Source of the DNA: Pseudobdellovibrionaceae bacterium
GTDB lineage: Bacteria; Bdellovibrionota; Bdellovibrionia; Bdellovibrionales; UBA1609
Direction: 5' to 3'
DNA length: 64,000 nt
Assembly: GCA_023898385.1 (NCBI GenBank)
Contig: CP060220.1
Location: forward strand, 10,370-74,369
The notes beneath the pieces were generated by a model. That model saw only the letters and a list, made by a program, of their open reading frames with translations, did no database searches and had not been told where the DNA came from. How positions within the stretch are numbered: the first letter of the stretch is position 1; each line of letters starts with the position of its first letter. The position numbers and the translations under genes are program-made. Shown piece after piece: positions 5,764 through 13,745 of this stretch.

Positions 5764-8056
5764 ATCATTTGCTTGCGTCATTTTTTTTATTTTATCGGTG
5801 GCGGAGGCACAGCCTCATAAAGTGACCCTCACTGAGGCCGATCAGTGGCCGCAGCCACGATGGATGCACGACGGAAGCTCCAGTGTGACGGGGCCCGTGC
5901 GCATTCTATATTTGGCAAAAAAAGCAGAATCAGAAGAGAAATTCAAAACCTGTCTGAGCCAACTCAGCAAAGCAGAAAAACGATTTCAAAATATCCAACC
6001 CTGGATAGCTCATCTGCGCCTTCAGTGTGGTCGCCTAGAAGTAAAGAAAGACTCCGAATCTTTGCGGAATCTTTGGGAAACCACAGAGTGGGTCCGGCAA
6101 AATCCGCAGTGGCTGACGGGCAGCCCTTACAGTGCCTCTTTAAGAGAAGAGTATTTAGAGGGGTTAATGAGCGTGGCCGAGGGATATGCGCAGTCTACAC
6201 CCGAACGCGCGTGGACGGCAGTGGAGAATTTATTGGCATTATTCGAATTCCTCAGCACCAGCGAAAAGGCAAAGATACTGAAGCTTGCTGGAGATGTGGC
6301 CCAACAATTGAAAAATCCAAGGGGCGCATTGGCCTACTACCAACGCAGTTTAGATCAAGAGTATGAAACGGCTCTGGCTGTGAAAGTTCAAAGCCTGCGA
6401 AAAAAATTGTTGATCCCAGAGGTGCCATCTTCGAGCGACGGCCAGCCTTCAATGACTGCAGACGCTTCGACACCAGCAGAAAAAGAATTGGCCCAACTAT
6501 TAGAGCGAATGAAAAAATGGGGCCGCAAAGGTGATCATGTCGCTGCTATTGTTGATGGCGTTCGGTTGTTACGTCAATACCCGGCCAGCCCCCAAGCTGA
6601 AATCGCATCCAATCAAGTGTCTGAAAGCCTGAAAGTCGTAGTAAAAGGTGGGGCGCAAAGCAAGATCGAGAAAGTTTTAAGAGAATTAAAAAAGTGTGAC
6701 GGTGACAATCTCAATCGCTGGGCTTTAAGACTGTTTGCACAACGTGAGTATGAGTTGGCTGAAAAACTAGCAGAGGCCAGTGCTGAAAAACTAGAGACAG
6801 CCGGCCAAGGCGCCAGAACATTGTTGTTGATTGCCAAAGGATTTGTAACAGAAGGCGAGTACAATCAGGCCATAAAAATTTACACAAGAATAAGCGACAA
6901 CTACCCCGGCAAAGATTGGGCGCATGAAGCTCGTTACCGCCTAGGATTGGTGAAGTTTCGCCAACAAAAATATGACGAAGCCAAGCCGTTGTTTGAAGGC
7001 TATTTGGCAAATCCCAATCGCGAAGAATTTCGCTTGAGTGCAATGCATTGGCTCTGGCGATCAGAATTAGAACTGAAATCTGAAAAAGCAGCCACGGTGG
7101 CACAGCAGTTGGTGAAAGAGTATCCGCTCACCTATTATGGATTGCGGGCTCGTGCCGAACTCAATGGGGGACAGCTGGAGTGGTCTGATGAGACTCACGC
7201 TCCACTCAAAGCCGAGATGTGGCTCACAGACAGTGAGCAACAAAGCTTTGATCGGTTTAAGCTTTTGCTGCAAGCCGGATGGCTAAAGGCCGCGCAGACC
7301 GAGCTCAGAAGTTTGCCAGATCCTTTGTCTGCTGAAGAAAGGCTTTTACGGGCTCGATTATTTGCCGCATCCATGGACTATTTCACAGCCATTCAGTGGA
7401 CGCAGAAAAGTTGGGAAGACAATCCTGGGTTGAGGGTGAAGCGATTTTTACCGCTGGTGTTTCCAAAGGAGTTTTCAAATCTCGTAGAAACTCAATCTGA
7501 AAAATACGAAGTGGAGCCACTGCTTGTATACGGTTTGATAAAACAAGAAAGTTCGTTTCGCACCAACGCGATAAGCCCTGCGCGGGCCATGGGATTAATG
7601 CAGCTCATGCCGGGCACAGCGCGTGATGTGGCTCGTTACAATCGTACGGGGTCTGTGCAGTTGCCAGATGACATGTTCGATCCTGAAAAAAACGTGTATT
7701 TCGGGACAAGTTATTTAAAGCGCATGATTCGGGCCTTTGATGGACATGTTCCGTTGGCTTTGGCCGCCTACAATGTGGGCATTGGAAACATGCGACGGTT
7801 TTTACGGGGCCGGGATGAACTGTCAGAGCTAGGTAAAAAACAAACCTCTCACTACCTGCACGAAGTGTGGGTGGATGAGTTGCCTTGGGAAGAAACCAGT
7901 TTTTATGTGAAGGCCATCATGCGAAACTTGCTTGTCTACAGAATGCTTGAGCAAAACAGCGTGGGTCTTGCCGATCCTCTTTGGGCACCCGTGGTGATGC
8001 AGACTCCCCTTGAGGCCTCACACCCCAATGATGCAAAGCCAAAACCTGGCCCTTGA
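5756..8056 (+). CDS. slt: Soluble lytic murein transglycosylase with TPR repeats
   Basis: C-terminal SLT motifs IKQESSF, ARAMGLMQLMP, ALAAYNVG, ETSFYV; helical TPR region. Confidence 0.9.
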   Translation: MFRSFACVIFFILSVAEAQPHKVTLTEADQWPQPRWMHDGSSSVTGPVRILYLAKKAESEEKFKTCLSQLSKAEKRFQNIQPWIAHLRLQCGRLEVKKDSESLRNLWETTEWVRQNPQWLTGSPYSASLREEYLEGLMSVAEGYAQSTPERAWTAVENLLALFEFLSTSEKAKILKLAGDVAQQLKNPRGALAYYQRSLDQEYETALAVKVQSLRKKLLIPEVPSSSDGQPSMTADASTPAEKELAQLLERMKKWGRKGDHVAAIVDGVRLLRQYPASPQAEIASNQVSESLKVVVKGGAQSKIEKVLRELKKCDGDNLNRWALRLFAQREYELAEKLAEASAEKLETAGQGARTLLLIAKGFVTEGEYNQAIKIYTRISDNYPGKDWAHEARYRLGLVKFRQQKYDEAKPLFEGYLANPNREEFRLSAMHWLWRSELELKSEKAATVAQQLVKEYPLTYYGLRARAELNGGQLEWSDETHAPLKAEMWLTDSEQQSFDRFKLLLQAGWLKAAQTELRSLPDPLSAEERLLRARLFAASMDYFTAIQWTQKSWEDNPGLRVKRFLPLVFPKEFSNLVETQSEKYEVEPLLVYGLIKQESSFRTNAISPARAMGLMQLMPGTARDVARYNRTGSVQLPDDMFDPEKNVYFGTSYLKRMIRAFDGHVPLALAAYNVGIGNMRRFLRGRDELSELGKKQTSHYLHEVWVDELPWEETSFYVKAIMRNLLVYRMLEQNSVGLADPLWAPVVMQTPLEASHPNDAKPKPGP

Positions 8057-8186: not shown

Positions 8187-9710
8187 ATGGCAGTATGGTT
8201 GAAGTATGCGGCGCCGTTGGTGGCGGCGTCAGTGGGCCTTTCGGGTTGTTCAACTTTTCGGCAAGCTAAAACGGGCAATGATGACCGAGAGGTTGAAATT
8301 CGCCATGAGTTTTATCAGCAAAACCCGCAGGCCGAAGAGCAAGAAGTCACGGGGCAGGCCGCATCAATTCCCTTAGTGGTAAATCCAAAGGTCAACCAAT
8401 GGATCAATTATTTTCAAGGTCGAGGTCGACCTCATATGGAGCGGTACCTAAGGCGCTCCAGTCGCTATTTGCCAAAAATGAAATCCGTGTTGCGAGAGCG
8501 GGGCCTTCCTGAGGAATTAGTCTATGTGCCTTTAATTGAATCGGGATTTAACCCAGTAGCACACAGTCACGCCAGTGCCGTGGGTTACTGGCAGTTTATT
8601 AGAAGTACTGGCAAGCGATACAACCTTCGAATCGATGGCTATGTGGACGAGCGACGGGATTTTGTGATGTCCACCGAGGCCGCAGCCAATTATTTTTCAG
8701 CCCTTTACAGTCTTTTCGGAGATTGGTACTTGGCCCTGGCCGCCTATAACACTGGTGAAAATCGCGTTAAACGAGCCACCATGCGCTATCACACACGAGA
8801 CTTCTGGGAGCTGGCAGAGGGAAGGAGGCTTCCCCGCGAAACGCGCAATTATGTGCCTAAGTTTATCGCTGCGGCGTTAATTCATAGAGAGCCGCAACGC
8901 TATGGATTCACTGATATCGACTATCAAGAGCCCCTAGCCTATGACCGCTTTGAAGTGACAAAGCCTGTGAGCTTGATCAAGTTGGCAAAAAATATCGATG
9001 TTCCTTATAAAACATTAAAGGCGTTAAATCCGAGCTTTCGAACAGATTATGTTCCTATTTATGGATCTCGACCGCAGCTGATTCGAGTGCCTACGGGGCA
9101 GCGAGATTTAGCTCTCGCGCAAATAGATAACAGCTACAGCAAAAAGCCGTCTTATGTATCTCGTGATTATTTTTACTATCGCGTACGTCGCGGAGATACC
9201 CTTTCTGAAATTGCCCAACGCCATCGTACGAGGATATCCACACTTCGACGGCTTAACGATTTGGGTCGGCGCTCCTTTCTTAGAGTGGGACAAAAGCTGA
9301 AGGTGCCGGTAGCCGGTGGAGTACAGGTGGCAGCGAACGATTCTGGTGATGAAGCACCGGTCAAGGAGACGGCGCAAAGGGCCGCGAGTATTGAAACCTC
9401 CTCTGACGGAACTCACCGGGTGCGACGAGGCGAGAATCTCACGTTGATTGCCAGAAAATATGGAATGAGTGTGAGTGAATTAAGAAGCCTTAATGGTTTA
9501 GGGCGCCGGTCGATGCTTAGGGTGGGGCAGAAATTGAAGGTTTCAGGAGAAGGCTCATCCTCACTGCGAGTTCACGTGGTTCGACGGGGTGAAAATCTGT
9601 CTTTGATTGCTCAGAAGTACGGCACATCGGTACGAGCTTTGGCGCAAGTTAACTCGCTTGAGAATCGCTCACGCATTTTCGCGGGCAAAAAGTTATATAT
9701 TCCTCATTAA
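8187..9710 (+). CDS. mltD: Membrane-bound lytic murein transglycosylase D (lipoprotein, SLT domain plus 3 LysM)
   Basis: Lipobox LSGC, LIESGF, AVGYWQFI, ALAAYNTGE, ETRNYVPK; three LysM repeats (YRVRRGDTL, HRVRRGENL, HVVRRGENL). Confidence 0.92.
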   Translation: MAVWLKYAAPLVAASVGLSGCSTFRQAKTGNDDREVEIRHEFYQQNPQAEEQEVTGQAASIPLVVNPKVNQWINYFQGRGRPHMERYLRRSSRYLPKMKSVLRERGLPEELVYVPLIESGFNPVAHSHASAVGYWQFIRSTGKRYNLRIDGYVDERRDFVMSTEAAANYFSALYSLFGDWYLALAAYNTGENRVKRATMRYHTRDFWELAEGRRLPRETRNYVPKFIAAALIHREPQRYGFTDIDYQEPLAYDRFEVTKPVSLIKLAKNIDVPYKTLKALNPSFRTDYVPIYGSRPQLIRVPTGQRDLALAQIDNSYSKKPSYVSRDYFYYRVRRGDTLSEIAQRHRTRISTLRRLNDLGRRSFLRVGQKLKVPVAGGVQVAANDSGDEAPVKETAQRAASIETSSDGTHRVRRGENLTLIARKYGMSVSELRSLNGLGRRSMLRVGQKLKVSGEGSSSLRVHVVRRGENLSLIAQKYGTSVRALAQVNSLENRSRIFAGKKLYIPH

Positions 9711-9712
9711 AT

Positions 9713-9745
9713 AAAAAAAACCCGCCAGGGTGTTTCCTAGGCGGG
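9713..9745 (-). terminator. Intrinsic terminator oriented for the minus-strand riboswitch transcript
   Basis: Minus strand reads CCCGCC-U-AGG AAACAC CCU-GGCGGG followed by U8. The plus strand has no U-tract after the hairpin. Confidence 0.85.
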
Positions 9746-9801
9746 CTGCAGGGATAAGATCTTCGAGGTTTCCCAAATAAATCCCCAAAAGCCCATTCGA
9801 A

Positions 9802-9887
9802 CCTTTGGCAGCTGGCTGGCATGGCATAAGCCGAAGCCCCTGTAGCTTTGCGTCCCGTGGTTTCCGCACGGTTTGCCCCTACAAAGG
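9802..9887 (-). ncRNA. c-di-GMP-I (GEMM) riboswitch aptamer
   Basis: Minus strand: CCUUUG UAGGGGCAAACCGUGCGGAAACCACGGGACGCAAAGCUACAGGGGCUUCGGCUUAUGCCAUGCCAGCCAGCUGC CAAAGG. It has GGCAAACC, a GAAA tetraloop in P2, GGGACGCAAAGC and a perfect P1 (CCUUUG/CAAAGG). G at the position equivalent to Vc2 G20 indicates c-di-GMP rather than cGAMP type. Confidence 0.93.
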
Positions 9888-9911
9888 AAGAACACTCGAA
9901 GGAAAGTCCAT
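9879..9911 (-). CDS. Candidate micro-ORF MDFPSSVLPL (10 aa) overlapping riboswitch P1
   Basis: AAGGAGG 7 nt before ATG; the last codons are the 5' strand of P1. Unverified. Confidence 0.35.
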   Translation of the reverse strand: MDFPSSVLPL

Positions 9912-9996
9912 AATACGACCTCCTTGTTAGCGAATGTTAATCTCGTTAGTAAGGTCTTCTCATATAAGAGAAGTTTAGAATCTCGCGTGTCTCACG

Positions 9997-10041
9997 CTAC
10001 TTTGGCGGCGGATCAATGCGCCACTTCTTGGGGTCCGTCAT
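9997..10041 (-). CDS. Candidate micro-ORF MTDPKKWRIDPPPK (14 aa)
   Basis: AAGGAG 8 nt before ATG; ends in a PPP motif. Unverified. Confidence 0.35.
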   Translation of the reverse strand: MTDPKKWRIDPPPK

Positions 10042-10210
10042 CGAAACAACTCCTTTCGAAAATACGTCAGCGTCTATACCTTCATAATAACGCGAAGTGT
10101 CTTTGCGACAAAGAGTTTATGAGGTCCCCATGAGAAAAAACCAGGCTCTGTCTCATTACGGTTCGAAACTCGCCTCGAGATAAGACAACCTGGCAACACT
10201 TCGGCGACGA

Positions 10211-10246
10211 TTGGGTTCCAGGTCCTAAACCTGATCACACAGCGTC
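10211..10246 (-). repeat. REP-like inverted repeat, left of RAYT
   Basis: ttgggttccaggtcctaaacctgatcacacagcgtc is the reverse complement of 11048-11083 at 34/36 positions; internal cagg/cctg hairpin. Confidence 0.9.
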
Positions 10247-10273
10247 AATGTCCACCCGATGCCATTTTGATTT

Positions 10274-10912
10274 TTAAATTATTTCACCGTCGAATAGCAC
10301 GGAGCTGTTTGTTAGCTTGTCTTTTTTGCTTTTAAAGTACTGCCGTTTTAACGCCCACCGGACGGCTTCATTTTGTTGATCGGAGGGCTTTTGGTTCAGC
10401 CACGACAACGTATCGTCTATGTTGTCAAAAAGTGTGTCGTCGAAGGCTAGTGGGATGAGCAACTTGGAGCGACCAAGCAGACCATGAAGAGTGCTGTAAG
10501 GATAATCTTCAACTCTTTCAGCCATACAAGCCTGAACCGGATTTCTATAGTTATACTTGTAGGCATTGAGGTAGTAGCTGGGATGATCTAAAATCGTCTT
10601 ATAGTGTCGGCCGGCAAATGTCTGATTAATACGATTCCCTGCTTGAGTTAGCCTCAAACTCACATTTTTTAGGAGCCGATACATGCACTGACTGATGTTG
10701 GCATCCGGTGTGGACGCTAGCAGGTGAAAATGGTTATTCATAAGAACAAAACTGTGGATTAGCAAATTATGATTAATCACTGTTAGGTATAACTCTTCAC
10801 TAAAAACATCCCATACCTGTGGCATGGGCAAGTTAAACCACTCGCGATTAATACAGCGGCCACTGATATTGTAAGGATACTTCGACTGGAGAATAGCTCT
10901 TGCTCGGGGCAT
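10274..10912 (-). CDS. REP-associated tyrosine transposase (RAYT, Y1 HUH family)
   Basis: HUH motif NHFHLL, catalytic-Tyr region YNYRNPV, YPYST; flanked by inverted REP-like repeats. Start taken at MPRARAIL. Confidence 0.88.
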   Translation of the reverse strand: MPRARAILQSKYPYNISGRCINREWFNLPMPQVWDVFSEELYLTVINHNLLIHSFVLMNNHFHLLASTPDANISQCMYRLLKNVSLRLTQAGNRINQTFAGRHYKTILDHPSYYLNAYKYNYRNPVQACMAERVEDYPYSTLHGLLGRSKLLIPLAFDDTLFDNIDDTLSWLNQKPSDQQNEAVRWALKRQYFKSKKDKLTNSSVLFDGEII

Positions 10913-11047
10913 GGATGGAACTTGCTGCAAATGCATGCCATTTTTTTCTGTCAGCTGTGTGTGTATCTGGCACTTGTAGTGTCCGAATTACATTCCACAG
11001 GGTCCGGTAACCAGGCCAATCTATTTGGGGTTAAATGGGCGGACTCC

Positions 11048-11083
11048 GACGCTATGTGACCAGGTTTAGGACCTGGAACCCAA
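11048..11083 (+). repeat. REP-like inverted repeat, right of RAYT
   Basis: gacgctatgtgaccaggtttaggacctggaacccaa; partner of 10211-10246. Confidence 0.9.
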
Positions 11084-11103: not shown

Positions 11104-11230
11104 CCCAAAACCTGGCGAGCTAGTTTCATGAAAGTCTGGGCCTCTATGCTTTCGGGATAACTTTCTACCACAGGAATGCCGGCTTCGCCGGTGAGTCCAA
11201 TGTTGGGGTTAAATGGAATTTGCGCCAACT
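11104..11230 (-). pseudogene. Duplicated 3' fragment of mrp/apbC (direct repeat of 12973-13099)
   Basis: 127 bp with 5 mismatches. Encodes LAQIPFNPNIGLTGEAGIPVVESYPESIEAQTFMKLARQVLG, then L-stop just beyond the repeat. Confidence 0.92.
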
Positions 11231-11945: not shown

Positions 11946-12449
11946 TTACCGAGTTAACAGGTGTTTTGGGATTTTTCTGTAAATGTTGTTTAAGTGAGTT
12001 TTTACAGTAGATGGCGCGATATTCAGGTGTTCGCCAATTTCCCGGTTCGAAAAGCCTTTGAGGATCATCGCTGAGATTTCGAACTCTCTCGGTGTGATCA
12101 AAAAGCTTTTAAGGGCTTCAAGGCGGGCCTCTAAGATCTCATCTTGAGGAGTCAACACAATTACATATTGATCGTCACGATTGATCATCAGGACGTCACA
12201 CCATTGACCATGCATTTGAATATTGCGGCCATAATTGTTGCTACAGGAGCCGGAAAATTTTGAAAGGCAATCTTCATTGCAAGAGACTCCAAGCTGATCA
12301 TTACAAATTGCAACACAGGCCGGGTTTTGGAATTTCACTGGACCACCGGGGGCTTTCATGCACAGACCAATGGATGTTGATTTATCTAAGGAACATTCTG
12401 TTTCTTGGAAATTTCCACCCCGGGGGTCGATGTTATTTTCGACAGACAT
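11946..12449 (-). CDS. LuxR/GerE-type HTH regulator with Cys-rich N-terminal domain
   Basis: C-terminal ITPREFEISAMILKGFSNREIGEHLNIAPSTVKTHLNNIYRK. Confidence 0.85.
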   Translation of the reverse strand: MSVENNIDPRGGNFQETECSLDKSTSIGLCMKAPGGPVKFQNPACVAICNDQLGVSCNEDCLSKFSGSCSNNYGRNIQMHGQWCDVLMINRDDQYVIVLTPQDEILEARLEALKSFLITPREFEISAMILKGFSNREIGEHLNIAPSTVKTHLNNIYRKIPKHLLTR

Positions 12450-12958: not shown

Positions 12959-12977
12959 TTTAGGACCTGGAACCCAA
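12959..12977 (+). repeat. Third (partial) REP copy, forming the last codons of mrp
   Basis: tttaggacctggaacccaa is identical to 11065-11083. Confidence 0.85.
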
Positions 12978-13745
12978 TACCTGGCGAGCTAGTTTCATGA
13001 AAGCCTGGGCCTCTATGCTTTCGGGGTAACTTTCTACCACGGGCATGCCGGCTTCGCCGGTGAGTCCAATGTTGGGGTTAAATGGAATTTGCGCCAACTT
13101 CTCAATGCCTTTGCTATCAAGGTATTGATCGAGTTCACCTTTTGGAAACAAGGCTATGGGGTCGCCACCGCCGGGGGGTTGAAAATAGGCCATGTTCTCT
13201 ACCACGCCGAGATTTTTTACATTTGTTTTTTCAAACATATCGATGGATTTTTTAGCATCGATGAGTGCGATATTTTGCGGTGTGCAGACGGTGACAGCTC
13301 CATCCACCGGAACTTTTTGGGCCACAGTGAGAGCGATGTCGCCGGTGCCTGGAGGCAAATCAATGATGAGAATGTCCAAATCCCCCCAGTCCACATCGCG
13401 AAAAAACTGGTCCATGGCTTTAAACAGCATGGGTCCCCGCCAAATCACAGCGGAGTCTTCATCTACCAGAAAGCCCATGCTCATCAGCTTCACTCCATGC
13501 CTTACCAAAGGCTGGATTTTTTGATTCTCATCCACCACGGGACGTTGATGAAGGGCCCCAAATAGCCGCGGCATGCTAGGACCATAAAGATCAGCATCCA
13601 GCAGCCCCACCTTTTGTCCTAATTTTTTTAATCCCAGGGCCAAATTGGCGGCCACAGTGCTTTTGCCCACGCCACCCTTGCCTGAGCCAACGGCAATAAT
13701 GCGCTTGATACCAGCAATGGGAGTTTGTTGATCAAATGGGTTCAT
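12960..13745 (-). CDS. mrp: Mrp/ApbC (NBP35 family) Fe-S carrier ATPase
   Basis: GSGKGGVGKST, DADLYGPS, WRGPM, DLPPGTGD, GVVENM. Confidence 0.92.
   Translation of the reverse strand: MNPFDQQTPIAGIKRIIAVGSGKGGVGKSTVAANLALGLKKLGQKVGLLDADLYGPSMPRLFGALHQRPVVDENQKIQPLVRHGVKLMSMGFLVDEDSAVIWRGPMLFKAMDQFFRDVDWGDLDILIIDLPPGTGDIALTVAQKVPVDGAVTVCTPQNIALIDAKKSIDMFEKTNVKNLGVVENMAYFQPPGGGDPIALFPKGELDQYLDSKGIEKLAQIPFNPNIGLTGEAGMPVVESYPESIEAQAFMKLARQVLGSRS

Follow-up and report, generated by a model that had tools for sequence, protein, structure and literature searches.

What does a riboswitch control when no gene follows it? The question is raised by a locus in a 64,000-nucleotide (nt) stretch of the genome of an uncultured sludge predator, a Pseudobdellovibrionaceae bacterium (contig CP060220.1, positions 10,370 to 74,369; here called the window and numbered from its first letter), where an aptamer for cyclic dimeric guanosine monophosphate (c-di-GMP) lies on the minus strand between a predicted promoter and an intrinsic terminator. 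A first-pass annotation made from the letters alone had marked out positions 9713-10135, a span that takes in the whole of the predicted transcript (approximately 10077 to 9713 minus, about 365 nt). The best explanation, to which we give a probability of roughly 0.72, is that the unit is a self-contained micro-mRNA or small RNA (sRNA) of about 365 nt, the orthologue in a different family-level lineage of merRNA, an abundant RNA of Bdellovibrio bacteriovorus, and that c-di-GMP acts on the very RNA that carries the aptamer. Read 5' to 3', such a unit would consist of a sigma-70-type promoter, a 14-codon open reading frame (ORF) led by a Shine-Dalgarno (SD) sequence, a spacer with an AAGGAGG hairpin, the aptamer with a 6-bp closing helix P1, and a 3' domain. 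Its features are listed below in that order, with the convergent neighboring gene last.

10084..10111, minus: predicted sigma-70-type promoter, with -35 TTGTCG (10111-10106), a 16-nt spacer and -10 TATTAT (10089-10084)
10050..10055, minus: AAGGAG, the SD sequence for the micro-ORF, spaced 8 nt from the ATG and predicted to lie in a small hairpin loop
9997..10041, minus: conserved micro-ORF of 14 codons plus stop, MTDPKKWRIDPPPK-stop, with homologous ORFs in 44 of 55 distinct loci
9919..9925, minus: purine box AAGGAGG resembling an SD, 31 nt ahead of the aptamer, present in most homologues and usually without a start codon behind it
9804..9887, minus: c-di-GMP-I (GEMM-I) aptamer, full model of RF01051
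9802..9807, minus: CAAAGG, 3' strand of closing helix P1, whose 5' strand is CCUUUG (9887-9882)
9785..9808, minus: alternative hairpin CCAAAGGUUC/GGGCUUUUGG (-10.3 kcal/mol), followed by GGAUUUAUUU
9743..9794, minus: stem C, outer GGGCU/AGCCC and inner GGGGAU/AUCCCU (-19.4 kcal/mol)
9713..9746, minus: intrinsic terminator, stem-loop GCCCGCCUAGGAAACACCCUGGCGGGU at 9746-9720 (-17.5 kcal/mol) with U8 running to 9713
8187..9710, plus: convergent MltD-like lytic transglycosylase with SLT and three LysM domains (domain matches), used as a synteny marker

By score and structure the element at 9887-9804 is a member of the c-di-GMP-I aptamer class, and as such it would be expected to bind c-di-GMP. The match to Rfam model RF01051 takes in all 87 model positions (1-87) and scores 62.5 bits, the gathering threshold being 35 bits (E = 7.8e-10), and the covariance-model check thus bears out the earlier description of a textbook GEMM-I on the minus strand. 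No other Rfam match was found within the window, and RF01051 has no second copy in the whole genome (3,330,855 bp, single contig). Both hairpins fit the consensus, the first with a GGAAAC loop that holds a GNRA tetraloop (GAAA), and the junction GACGCAAAGC aligns to the consensus junction ACGCAAAGC. A G stands at the first G of GGCAAAC and the 3' strand ...GCUGCC is that of the consensus, features which, on the Vc2 numbering (G20, A47, C92), may fit the c-di-GMP rather than the 3',3'-cyclic GMP-AMP type. Thirty distinct homologues retain the 6-bp P1, with compensatory changes from C-G to U-A at pairs 5 and 6.

RF01051 was detected in 13 of the 41 relatives sampled (the positives fall in six family-level groups of the order Bdellovibrionales), in 33 of the 109 genomes from the window's family and in all six named Bdellovibrio genomes; positive genomes always have exactly one copy. 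Within the family most carriers of the RNA have genomes of 2.7-4.9 Mb, and the listed genera with genomes of only 1.2-2.5 Mb lack it; as it is also missing from some large genomes its loss is patchy. The synteny check called for by the first-pass annotation was run as well. With a covariance model built from 13 aptamers, the aptamer was located downstream of and convergent to an mltD orthologue in 27 of 80 loci, including those of B. bacteriovorus s4, Bd16 and several Bdellovibrio sp. strains, and a mrp/ParA-type gene is usually found upstream on the strand of the RNA (mltD -> <- RNA <- mrp). The closest relatives of the window's MltD are encoded by metagenome-assembled genomes labelled Bdellovibrionales or Pseudobdellovibrionaceae (41-56% identity), with named Bdellovibrio at 45-49%.

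In B. bacteriovorus HD100 merRNA is a 445-nt RNA encoded on the reverse strand at 1,073,741-1,074,185 (Karunker et al., 2013, PMC3627812). The aptamer of the named Bdellovibrio genomes lies on the reverse strand at about 0.95-1.2 Mb in five of the six, and on the forward strand at about 0.49 Mb in strain kdesi. The strain s4 locus (L046) carries the published sequence of the merRNA promoter construct, PmerRNA (...GTGGTCCCCTTGAAAATAAA(A)CTTTGGTCGAGCTATCCT...), its region 5' of the aptamer RNA matches that construct (...GTGGTCCCCTTGAAAATAAACTTTGGTCGAGCTATCCT...), and its predicted length from promoter to terminator end, about 456 nt, is close to the 445 nt reported for merRNA. Contigs of one public run that match L046 at 99-100% identity extend from the micro-ORF to the 3' domain at a word depth of 200-1700, with the flanks uncovered. 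A separate observation concerns L046:7962 (run X44), where the end of a high-depth contig is joined to sequencing-adapter letters, 37 nt beyond the stop of the micro-ORF, with another 97 nt to the aptamer. A contig end at adapter letters implies that many molecules end there, and the position may be a processing site that parts the coding from the riboswitch portion of merRNA.

Outside the aptamer, several modules are shared across the loci: an SD-led micro-ORF ending D-x-x-P-K-stop, an AAGGAGG box, a pyrimidine tract with P1, and a terminator. Taken together, the single copy, the mrp/mltD placement, the shared modules and the PmerRNA promoter at the Bdellovibrio copy indicate that the unit is the positional orthologue of merRNA, and the homology once raised as a possibility is, judged from comparative sequence, very probable indeed, in a lineage whose proteins are some 45-50% identical to those of Bdellovibrio. 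The merRNA of HD100 resembles the unit in having one c-di-GMP-I aptamer per genome, a terminator-bounded RNA of 350-450 nt, its own strong-type promoter, no gene behind it, the mrp/mltD neighborhood, an upstream micro-ORF (M-K-x-R...D-x-x-P-K-stop), the AAGGAGG box, the CUUCCUUUG tract and P1. The two differ in the peptide (...PK(D/E)WRLDPPPK type in the window, MK.RIHDHHDE(A/P)PK in Bdellovibrio), in the 3' domain (stem C and no downstream ORF in the window, a MEG...DWFHSP-stop ORF in Bdellovibrio) and in the position of mltD, which directly abuts the terminator in the window. Massive expression in the attack phase is a feature of merRNA and might extend to the window's RNA.

Among these modules the micro-ORF lies 5' of the aptamer. 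In the window it reads, with its SD, AAGGAG-N8-ATG ACG GAC CCC AAG AAG TGG CGC ATT GAT CCG CCG CCA AAG TAG, and the homologous ORFs have 13-16 codons (29-30 in a version found in two relatives) and in almost all cases a strong SD, mostly of the AAGGAGG type. Three types of peptide are seen: the window type, M-x(1-3)-P-K-(D/E)-W-R-L-D-P-P-P-(K/E)-stop, known from 29 sequences; the Bdellovibrio type, MK(H/N/Y/F)RIHDHHDE(A/P)PK-stop; and an intermediate type, ...DH(N/R)DKSPK-stop. Invariant residues gather at the C-terminus, with D at -5, P at -2 and K/E at -1. Across the 29 window-type sequences the D and P codons show 0-0.36 bits of entropy at positions 1 and 2 vs. 0.8-2.0 bits at position 3 (1.4-2.0 bits at the third position of the conserved Pro codons), the stop codons TAA, TAG and TGA interchange, and conservation drops past the stop. 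This third-position bias and the exchange of stop codons argue that the micro-ORF is translated, and in all likelihood the peptide is under purifying selection. The distance from its stop to the aptamer ranges from 41 to 212 nt across loci.

The 2013 report described merRNA as lacking conservation outside the Bdellovibrio lineage and as lacking a conserved ORF (PMC3627812). Comparison across the family revises both statements; the second concerned the downstream side and rested on two strains, whereas the micro-ORF lies upstream. As far as could be checked, the finding that merRNA-family RNAs appear not to be coding-free, with a conserved micro-ORF 5' of the aptamer, is new at the family level. 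Between the micro-ORF and the aptamer, the AAGGAGG box forms a local hairpin with UCCUU (-9.2 kcal/mol). It is likewise the complement of the pyrimidine tract containing the P1 5' strand, a complementarity by which ligand binding could expose the box as well. No covariation was seen between the loop (AAGGAGG) and the tract (CUUCCUU); the tract is invariant, and this pairing is neither supported nor refuted.

Upstream of the micro-ORF, the promoter candidate has 9 of 12 consensus matches and places the predicted start near 10077 minus. A GCG-TTAT(T/C)CT -10 region is found at the equivalent position in relatives, and the promoter of the B. bacteriovorus orthologue is TTGAAA-N18-TATCCT, as in the published PmerRNA construct. 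A FliA (sigma-28) promoter was considered and rejected, since no spacing fits and the merRNA orthologue is listed without a FliA motif (PMC3627812). By eye, an (A/T)TTTGAGA(T/A)T box is seen 43-44 nt 5' of the -10 in many family members (e.g., L027, L059, L096, L101 and L111), and it lies at that distance in the published PmerRNA (L046 and HD100) too; it may be an activator or UP site. The 10-mer GACGTATTTT (window 10056-10068 region) is common to the Bdellovibrio upstream region, and in the window it lies 3' of the predicted transcription start.

At the other end, the first-pass annotation had placed an intrinsic terminator about 55 nt after the aptamer with a convergent mltD beyond it, and both were recovered. 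The terminator stem, of 7 + 3 pairs followed directly by U8, begins 57 nt past the last matched aptamer base. A generic terminator scan gave 3 sites vs. 1.4 expected, not above chance, and a terminator stands 55-120 nt past the aptamer in nearly all of the 36 homologous loci scanned. The U-run ends 2 nt from the stop of the ORF at 8187-9710, called MltD-like because of its SLT domain and three LysM domains; a second transglycosylase, of SLT/TPR type, precedes it.

Is there, then, a gene for the riboswitch to control? No ORF of at least 60 amino acids (aa) was found 3' of the aptamer on the minus strand of the window. Across 52 loci, the first long ORF past the terminator (stop-to-stop, at least 100 aa) is convergent in most, and the co-directional genes present in about 10 are mutually unrelated (an aldolase-SDR fusion, DnaJ-like, LolA-like and histidine kinase genes, and others). 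A regulated downstream gene was accordingly rejected, and the description as an orphan riboswitch with its own terminator holds at the locus and family-wide. Two small ORFs were also discarded. That from ATG 9796 to TAG 9737 (19 codons) was judged spurious as its ATG is absent in the closest metatranscriptome relative (loci L003 and L025 differ by a 1-nt indel in this region), and a 10-codon ORF at 9911-9879 (MDFPSSVLPL-stop), which overlaps the aptamer behind AAGGAGG, is not conserved in homologues. With no gene after the unit, the riboswitch probably acts on its own RNA rather than on a downstream cistron or a neighboring gene.

How it might do so is suggested by the 3' domain. The alternative hairpin excludes P1 because it takes up the P1 3' strand, and it overlaps the 5' arm of stem C; similar hairpins occur in L008 and L095/L097, and less perfect ones in L003, L010 and L025. 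Stem C is antiterminator-like in that its 3' arm and the terminator 5' arm have GCCC (9746-9743) in common. Stem C with compensatory changes and the terminator overlap (CCC) recurs in several genera: in L003 and L025 (GGGCC...GGCCC), in L008 (GGGCUU/AAGCCC), in L095 and L097 (AGGCUU/AAGCCU), in L010 and in all 15 RNAs of genus g46. The competition was followed by constrained folding, with the RNA free or with P1 enforced. In the free RNA the terminator state lies at -70.9 and the stem C state at -61.5 kcal/mol, a gap of 9.4 kcal/mol; with P1 enforced they lie at -60.2 and -58.4 kcal/mol, a gap of 1.8 kcal/mol. Such folding models describe the layout of an ON switch, in which ligand would favor P1, P1 would favor stem C, and stem C would lessen termination. 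In the unconstrained minimum free energy (MFE) fold of the whole RNA, P1 is absent and the aptamer 5' junction pairs with AUCCCUGCA; this pairing is not conserved in relatives and the fold was therefore not used as a model.

The mechanism proposed for the self-contained micro-mRNA is a relay of P1, alternative hairpin, stem C and terminator in which each element would shut out the next. Binding of c-di-GMP would lock P1, the alternative hairpin would dissolve, and stem C would then compete with the terminator. With the resulting shift in 3' end and conformation, the RNA could become more or less stable, read through into antisense mltD to a different extent and expose its purine boxes differently, so that the level of c-di-GMP would be coupled to the amount of the micro-mRNA and of its peptide. 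Buffering of c-di-GMP would be a by-product, provided that the RNA is as abundant as merRNA.

The Bdellovibrio-type RNAs possess, 3' of the aptamer, an SD-led ORF (MEG-x(4-8)-D(W/R)FHSP-stop) whose stop abuts the terminator stem and whose length changes in three-base steps. Even at wobble positions the FHSP codons do not vary, so a constraint at the RNA level also acts there. In L046 this second micro-ORF (7705-7752 minus, MEGINTYKDWFHSP-stop, 14-codon) lies past the aptamer with its stop touching the terminator, as it does at other Bdellovibrio-type loci. Its SD (AGAGGUG) can pair with an upstream CACCU, which can alternatively pair with GGUG beside the P1 3' strand, an arrangement that looks like a translational OFF switch.

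The strongest of the competing explanations is that the RNA is a purely non-coding store or sponge for c-di-GMP, as in the model put forward for the orthologue in 2013 on the basis of about 2 million reads per kilobase per million mapped reads (RPKM) in the attack phase (PMC3627812). Binding would then be stoichiometric and nothing more, with the micro-ORF and the 3' domain merely stabilizing the RNA. A single aptamer per genome without a target gene speaks for such a model, yet the model accounts neither for the purifying selection seen on a 14-residue peptide whose SD is strong nor for a covarying P1 tied to a relay of mutually exclusive helices. As a full account it is possible if rather unlikely, and a sponge role is in any case compatible with the self-contained micro-mRNA proposed here.

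An ON riboswitch for read-through is a second candidate. Here c-di-GMP would favor stem C over the terminator, transcripts begun at a very strong promoter would continue into the convergent mltD, and antisense RNA or polymerase collision would lower expression of this lytic transglycosylase. The relay has the shape of a classical ON switch, GCCC is shared by stem C and the terminator, the energy gap narrows when P1 is enforced, and mltD stops 2 nt from the end of the terminator, the downstream neighbor being convergent in most loci. The terminator, with its -17.5 kcal/mol and eight U residues, nevertheless still wins thermodynamically, so that the ligand may only modulate 3'-end formation or 3'-domain structure. 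Furthermore, mltD lies 1-7 kb away in Bdellovibrio and genus g46 and is not the downstream neighbor in many relatives, the downstream genes vary by genome and are co-directional in about 10 loci, and the Bdellovibrio type lacks stem C. Control of mltD in this manner is thus unlikely, and a functionally important ligand-dependent read-through of any kind is, on the folding models, rather doubtful.

Could the micro-ORF instead be a cis-acting leader? Stalling or slow release at ...LDPPPK-stop, dependent on elongation factor P (EF-P) or on proline, would remodel the folding of spacer and aptamer or protect the RNA, and translation status would be integrated with c-di-GMP. Sequences DPP and PPP are reportedly strong EF-P-dependent stall motifs in screens of the Peil/Starosta type, the 3' half of the micro-ORF and its stop codon fall within conserved hairpins, and the invariant residues cluster at the C-terminus. 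TnaC and the polyproline/EF-P-dependent and RAPP-type arrest peptides are leader peptides with a critical C-terminal Pro or Trp/Asp, and the window's peptide likewise comes from a very short ORF in which W, D and P are invariant near a stop in a structured region. The spacing and motif are different, however, no downstream gene is there to control, and part of the family is without polyproline, the Bdellovibrio-type peptides ending DEAPK, DKSPK or DEAIK. The variable distance between stop and aptamer is also loose for coupling of the attenuation type, and this role for the micro-ORF is unlikely.

Several observations weigh against the explanation of a self-contained, c-di-GMP-responsive micro-mRNA. 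RNA of this organism was not found: its sequence, which recurs unchanged in many independent activated-sludge metagenomes, was present in DNA runs only, and the RNA runs contain relatives with less than 90% identity to the window. Promoter-like sites in the scan number 2 vs. 1.4 expected, the start being a consensus match only, and a TTGAGA box was not found in the window at the distance usual in relatives. An element of the RAYT/REP type (repetitive extragenic palindrome with its associated tyrosine transposase) sits directly upstream of the promoter of the RNA; with no such box at that distance, the promoter may be weakened. About 11 of 55 loci, among them those of genus g25 and L002/L007, are without a micro-ORF. 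The third positions of Pro codons join hairpins in some relatives and not all wobble variation is neutral: in several, Pro codons pair with a G-rich segment past the stop, so some wobble changes are compensatory. The terminator is the minimum-energy state even with P1 enforced, and termination may therefore be constitutive. Finally, the layout of the 3' domain varies by genus, the Bdellovibrio type having a small downstream ORF in place of stem C.

Relatives do provide transcripts. In metatranscriptomes from sediment and other sources (X25, X26, X28 and X29), contigs of 211-304 nt cover window positions 9798-10023, from the micro-ORF (MLKPKE...) to GGGCUUUUUGGGAU, and as they span micro-ORF to 3' domain they indicate that close relatives express the same short RNA in nature. 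The DNA upstream of the unit has been rearranged. The RAYT/REP-type element (10211-11083) holds a 220-aa ORF (10274-10936 minus) with a weak match to IS200-like Y1 transposases (E = 5e-4), flanked by 47-nt inverted repeats (10211-10257 and 11037-11083) that are 87% complementary. Beyond it, the 3' end of mrp is duplicated in a 127-nt direct repeat (copies at 11104-11230 and 12973-13099, 96% identical), which encloses an island coding for a LuxR/GerE-type regulator (11946-12449); two further ORFs of the island matched no family. Since mrp is the immediate upstream neighbor of the RNA in relatives, about 2.85 kb has been inserted here.

The window's copy might thus be silenced or decaying, with RAYT/REP and the 1.9-kb island between mrp and the RNA having removed upstream promoter elements and left low expression. 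About 100 nt separate the end of the inverted REP arm from the -35 downstream of it, and the conserved TTGAGA box does not stand at the customary spacing. The -35 and -10, SD, uninterrupted micro-ORF with its consensus residues, full-score aptamer, P1 and terminator are nonetheless all intact, and the identity of the sequence across independent sludge metagenomes also speaks against decay, which makes this improbable. Least probable of all is an RNA that titrates CsrA or 30S subunits through GGA or SD-like boxes exposed or hidden by c-di-GMP binding. In its favor, covarying hairpins on either side of the aptamer carry GGA in their loops, as does the terminator loop of genus g46 and others, the AAGGAGG box is the complement of the 5' tract of P1, and CsrA is encoded in this genome and in 102 of 109 family genomes. 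A CsrB/RsmZ-type sponge is nevertheless weakened by the lack of GGA enrichment (9.6 per RNA vs. 8.9 in dinucleotide shuffles; mean unpaired probability only slightly higher, 0.42 vs. 0.38), by the predicted pairing of several GGA motifs in the window, by the missing loop-to-tract covariation and by a near-universal CsrA whose presence does not track that of the RNA.

Known systems offer partial parallels to the micro-mRNA. The closest mechanistic precedent is the Vc2 aptamer of V. cholerae, which at the 3' end of sRNAs upstream of tfoY stabilizes the upstream RNA when c-di-GMP is bound (10.1101/617340). The 3' ends of those sRNAs are not made by termination and the aptamer also regulates the downstream tfoY (10.1101/617340), whereas the window has a strong intrinsic terminator, no gene after it and an upstream RNA that is coding. 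Classical c-di-GMP-I riboswitches (Vc2-tfoY and Cd1-flgB of C. difficile) share with the window the aptamer fold, the opposition of P1 to an alternative helix and a terminator in the expression platform, but the window lacks their regulated downstream cistron, locally and family-wide. SgrS/SgrT, RNAIII/hld and SR1/SR1P are dual-function coding small RNAs, and EutX/Rli55 are riboswitch-controlled non-coding RNAs. The likeness to them lies in a short abundant RNA with a tiny ORF and a structured domain, or in a riboswitch that sets the form of an RNA; in the window the riboswitch stands 3' of the ORF and not before the body of the RNA, and it has neither a known base-pairing target nor a known sequestered protein.

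A search of the full-text literature, with incomplete coverage, turned up no functional study of merRNA later than 2013. In attack-phase B. bacteriovorus this RNA is about as abundant as all mRNAs combined, yet it has been without a tested function since 2013, and it is in use today only as a source of a promoter. What the family comparison adds is strict single copy, breadth across the order, a micro-ORF that is in all likelihood translated, and a relay of helices ending in the terminator of the RNA itself. A wider reading can be advanced tentatively, namely that the merRNA family consists of riboswitch-bearing micro-mRNAs and not of non-coding sponges. What the most abundant attack-phase transcript of these predators really delivers would then be the conserved 14-residue peptide (...WRLDPPPK or ...HDHHDEPPK) or ribosome stalling at its Pro-rich end. 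The stability of the RNA, its 3' end and its translation would be set by c-di-GMP, sensed in the 3' untranslated region or, for Bdellovibrio proper, in the stretch that separates two micro-ORFs. In either form, a vague sponge idea becomes a set of hypotheses testable in a genetically tractable laboratory strain, and the family offers a natural case of a riboswitch placed 3' of a coding sequence that it may control.

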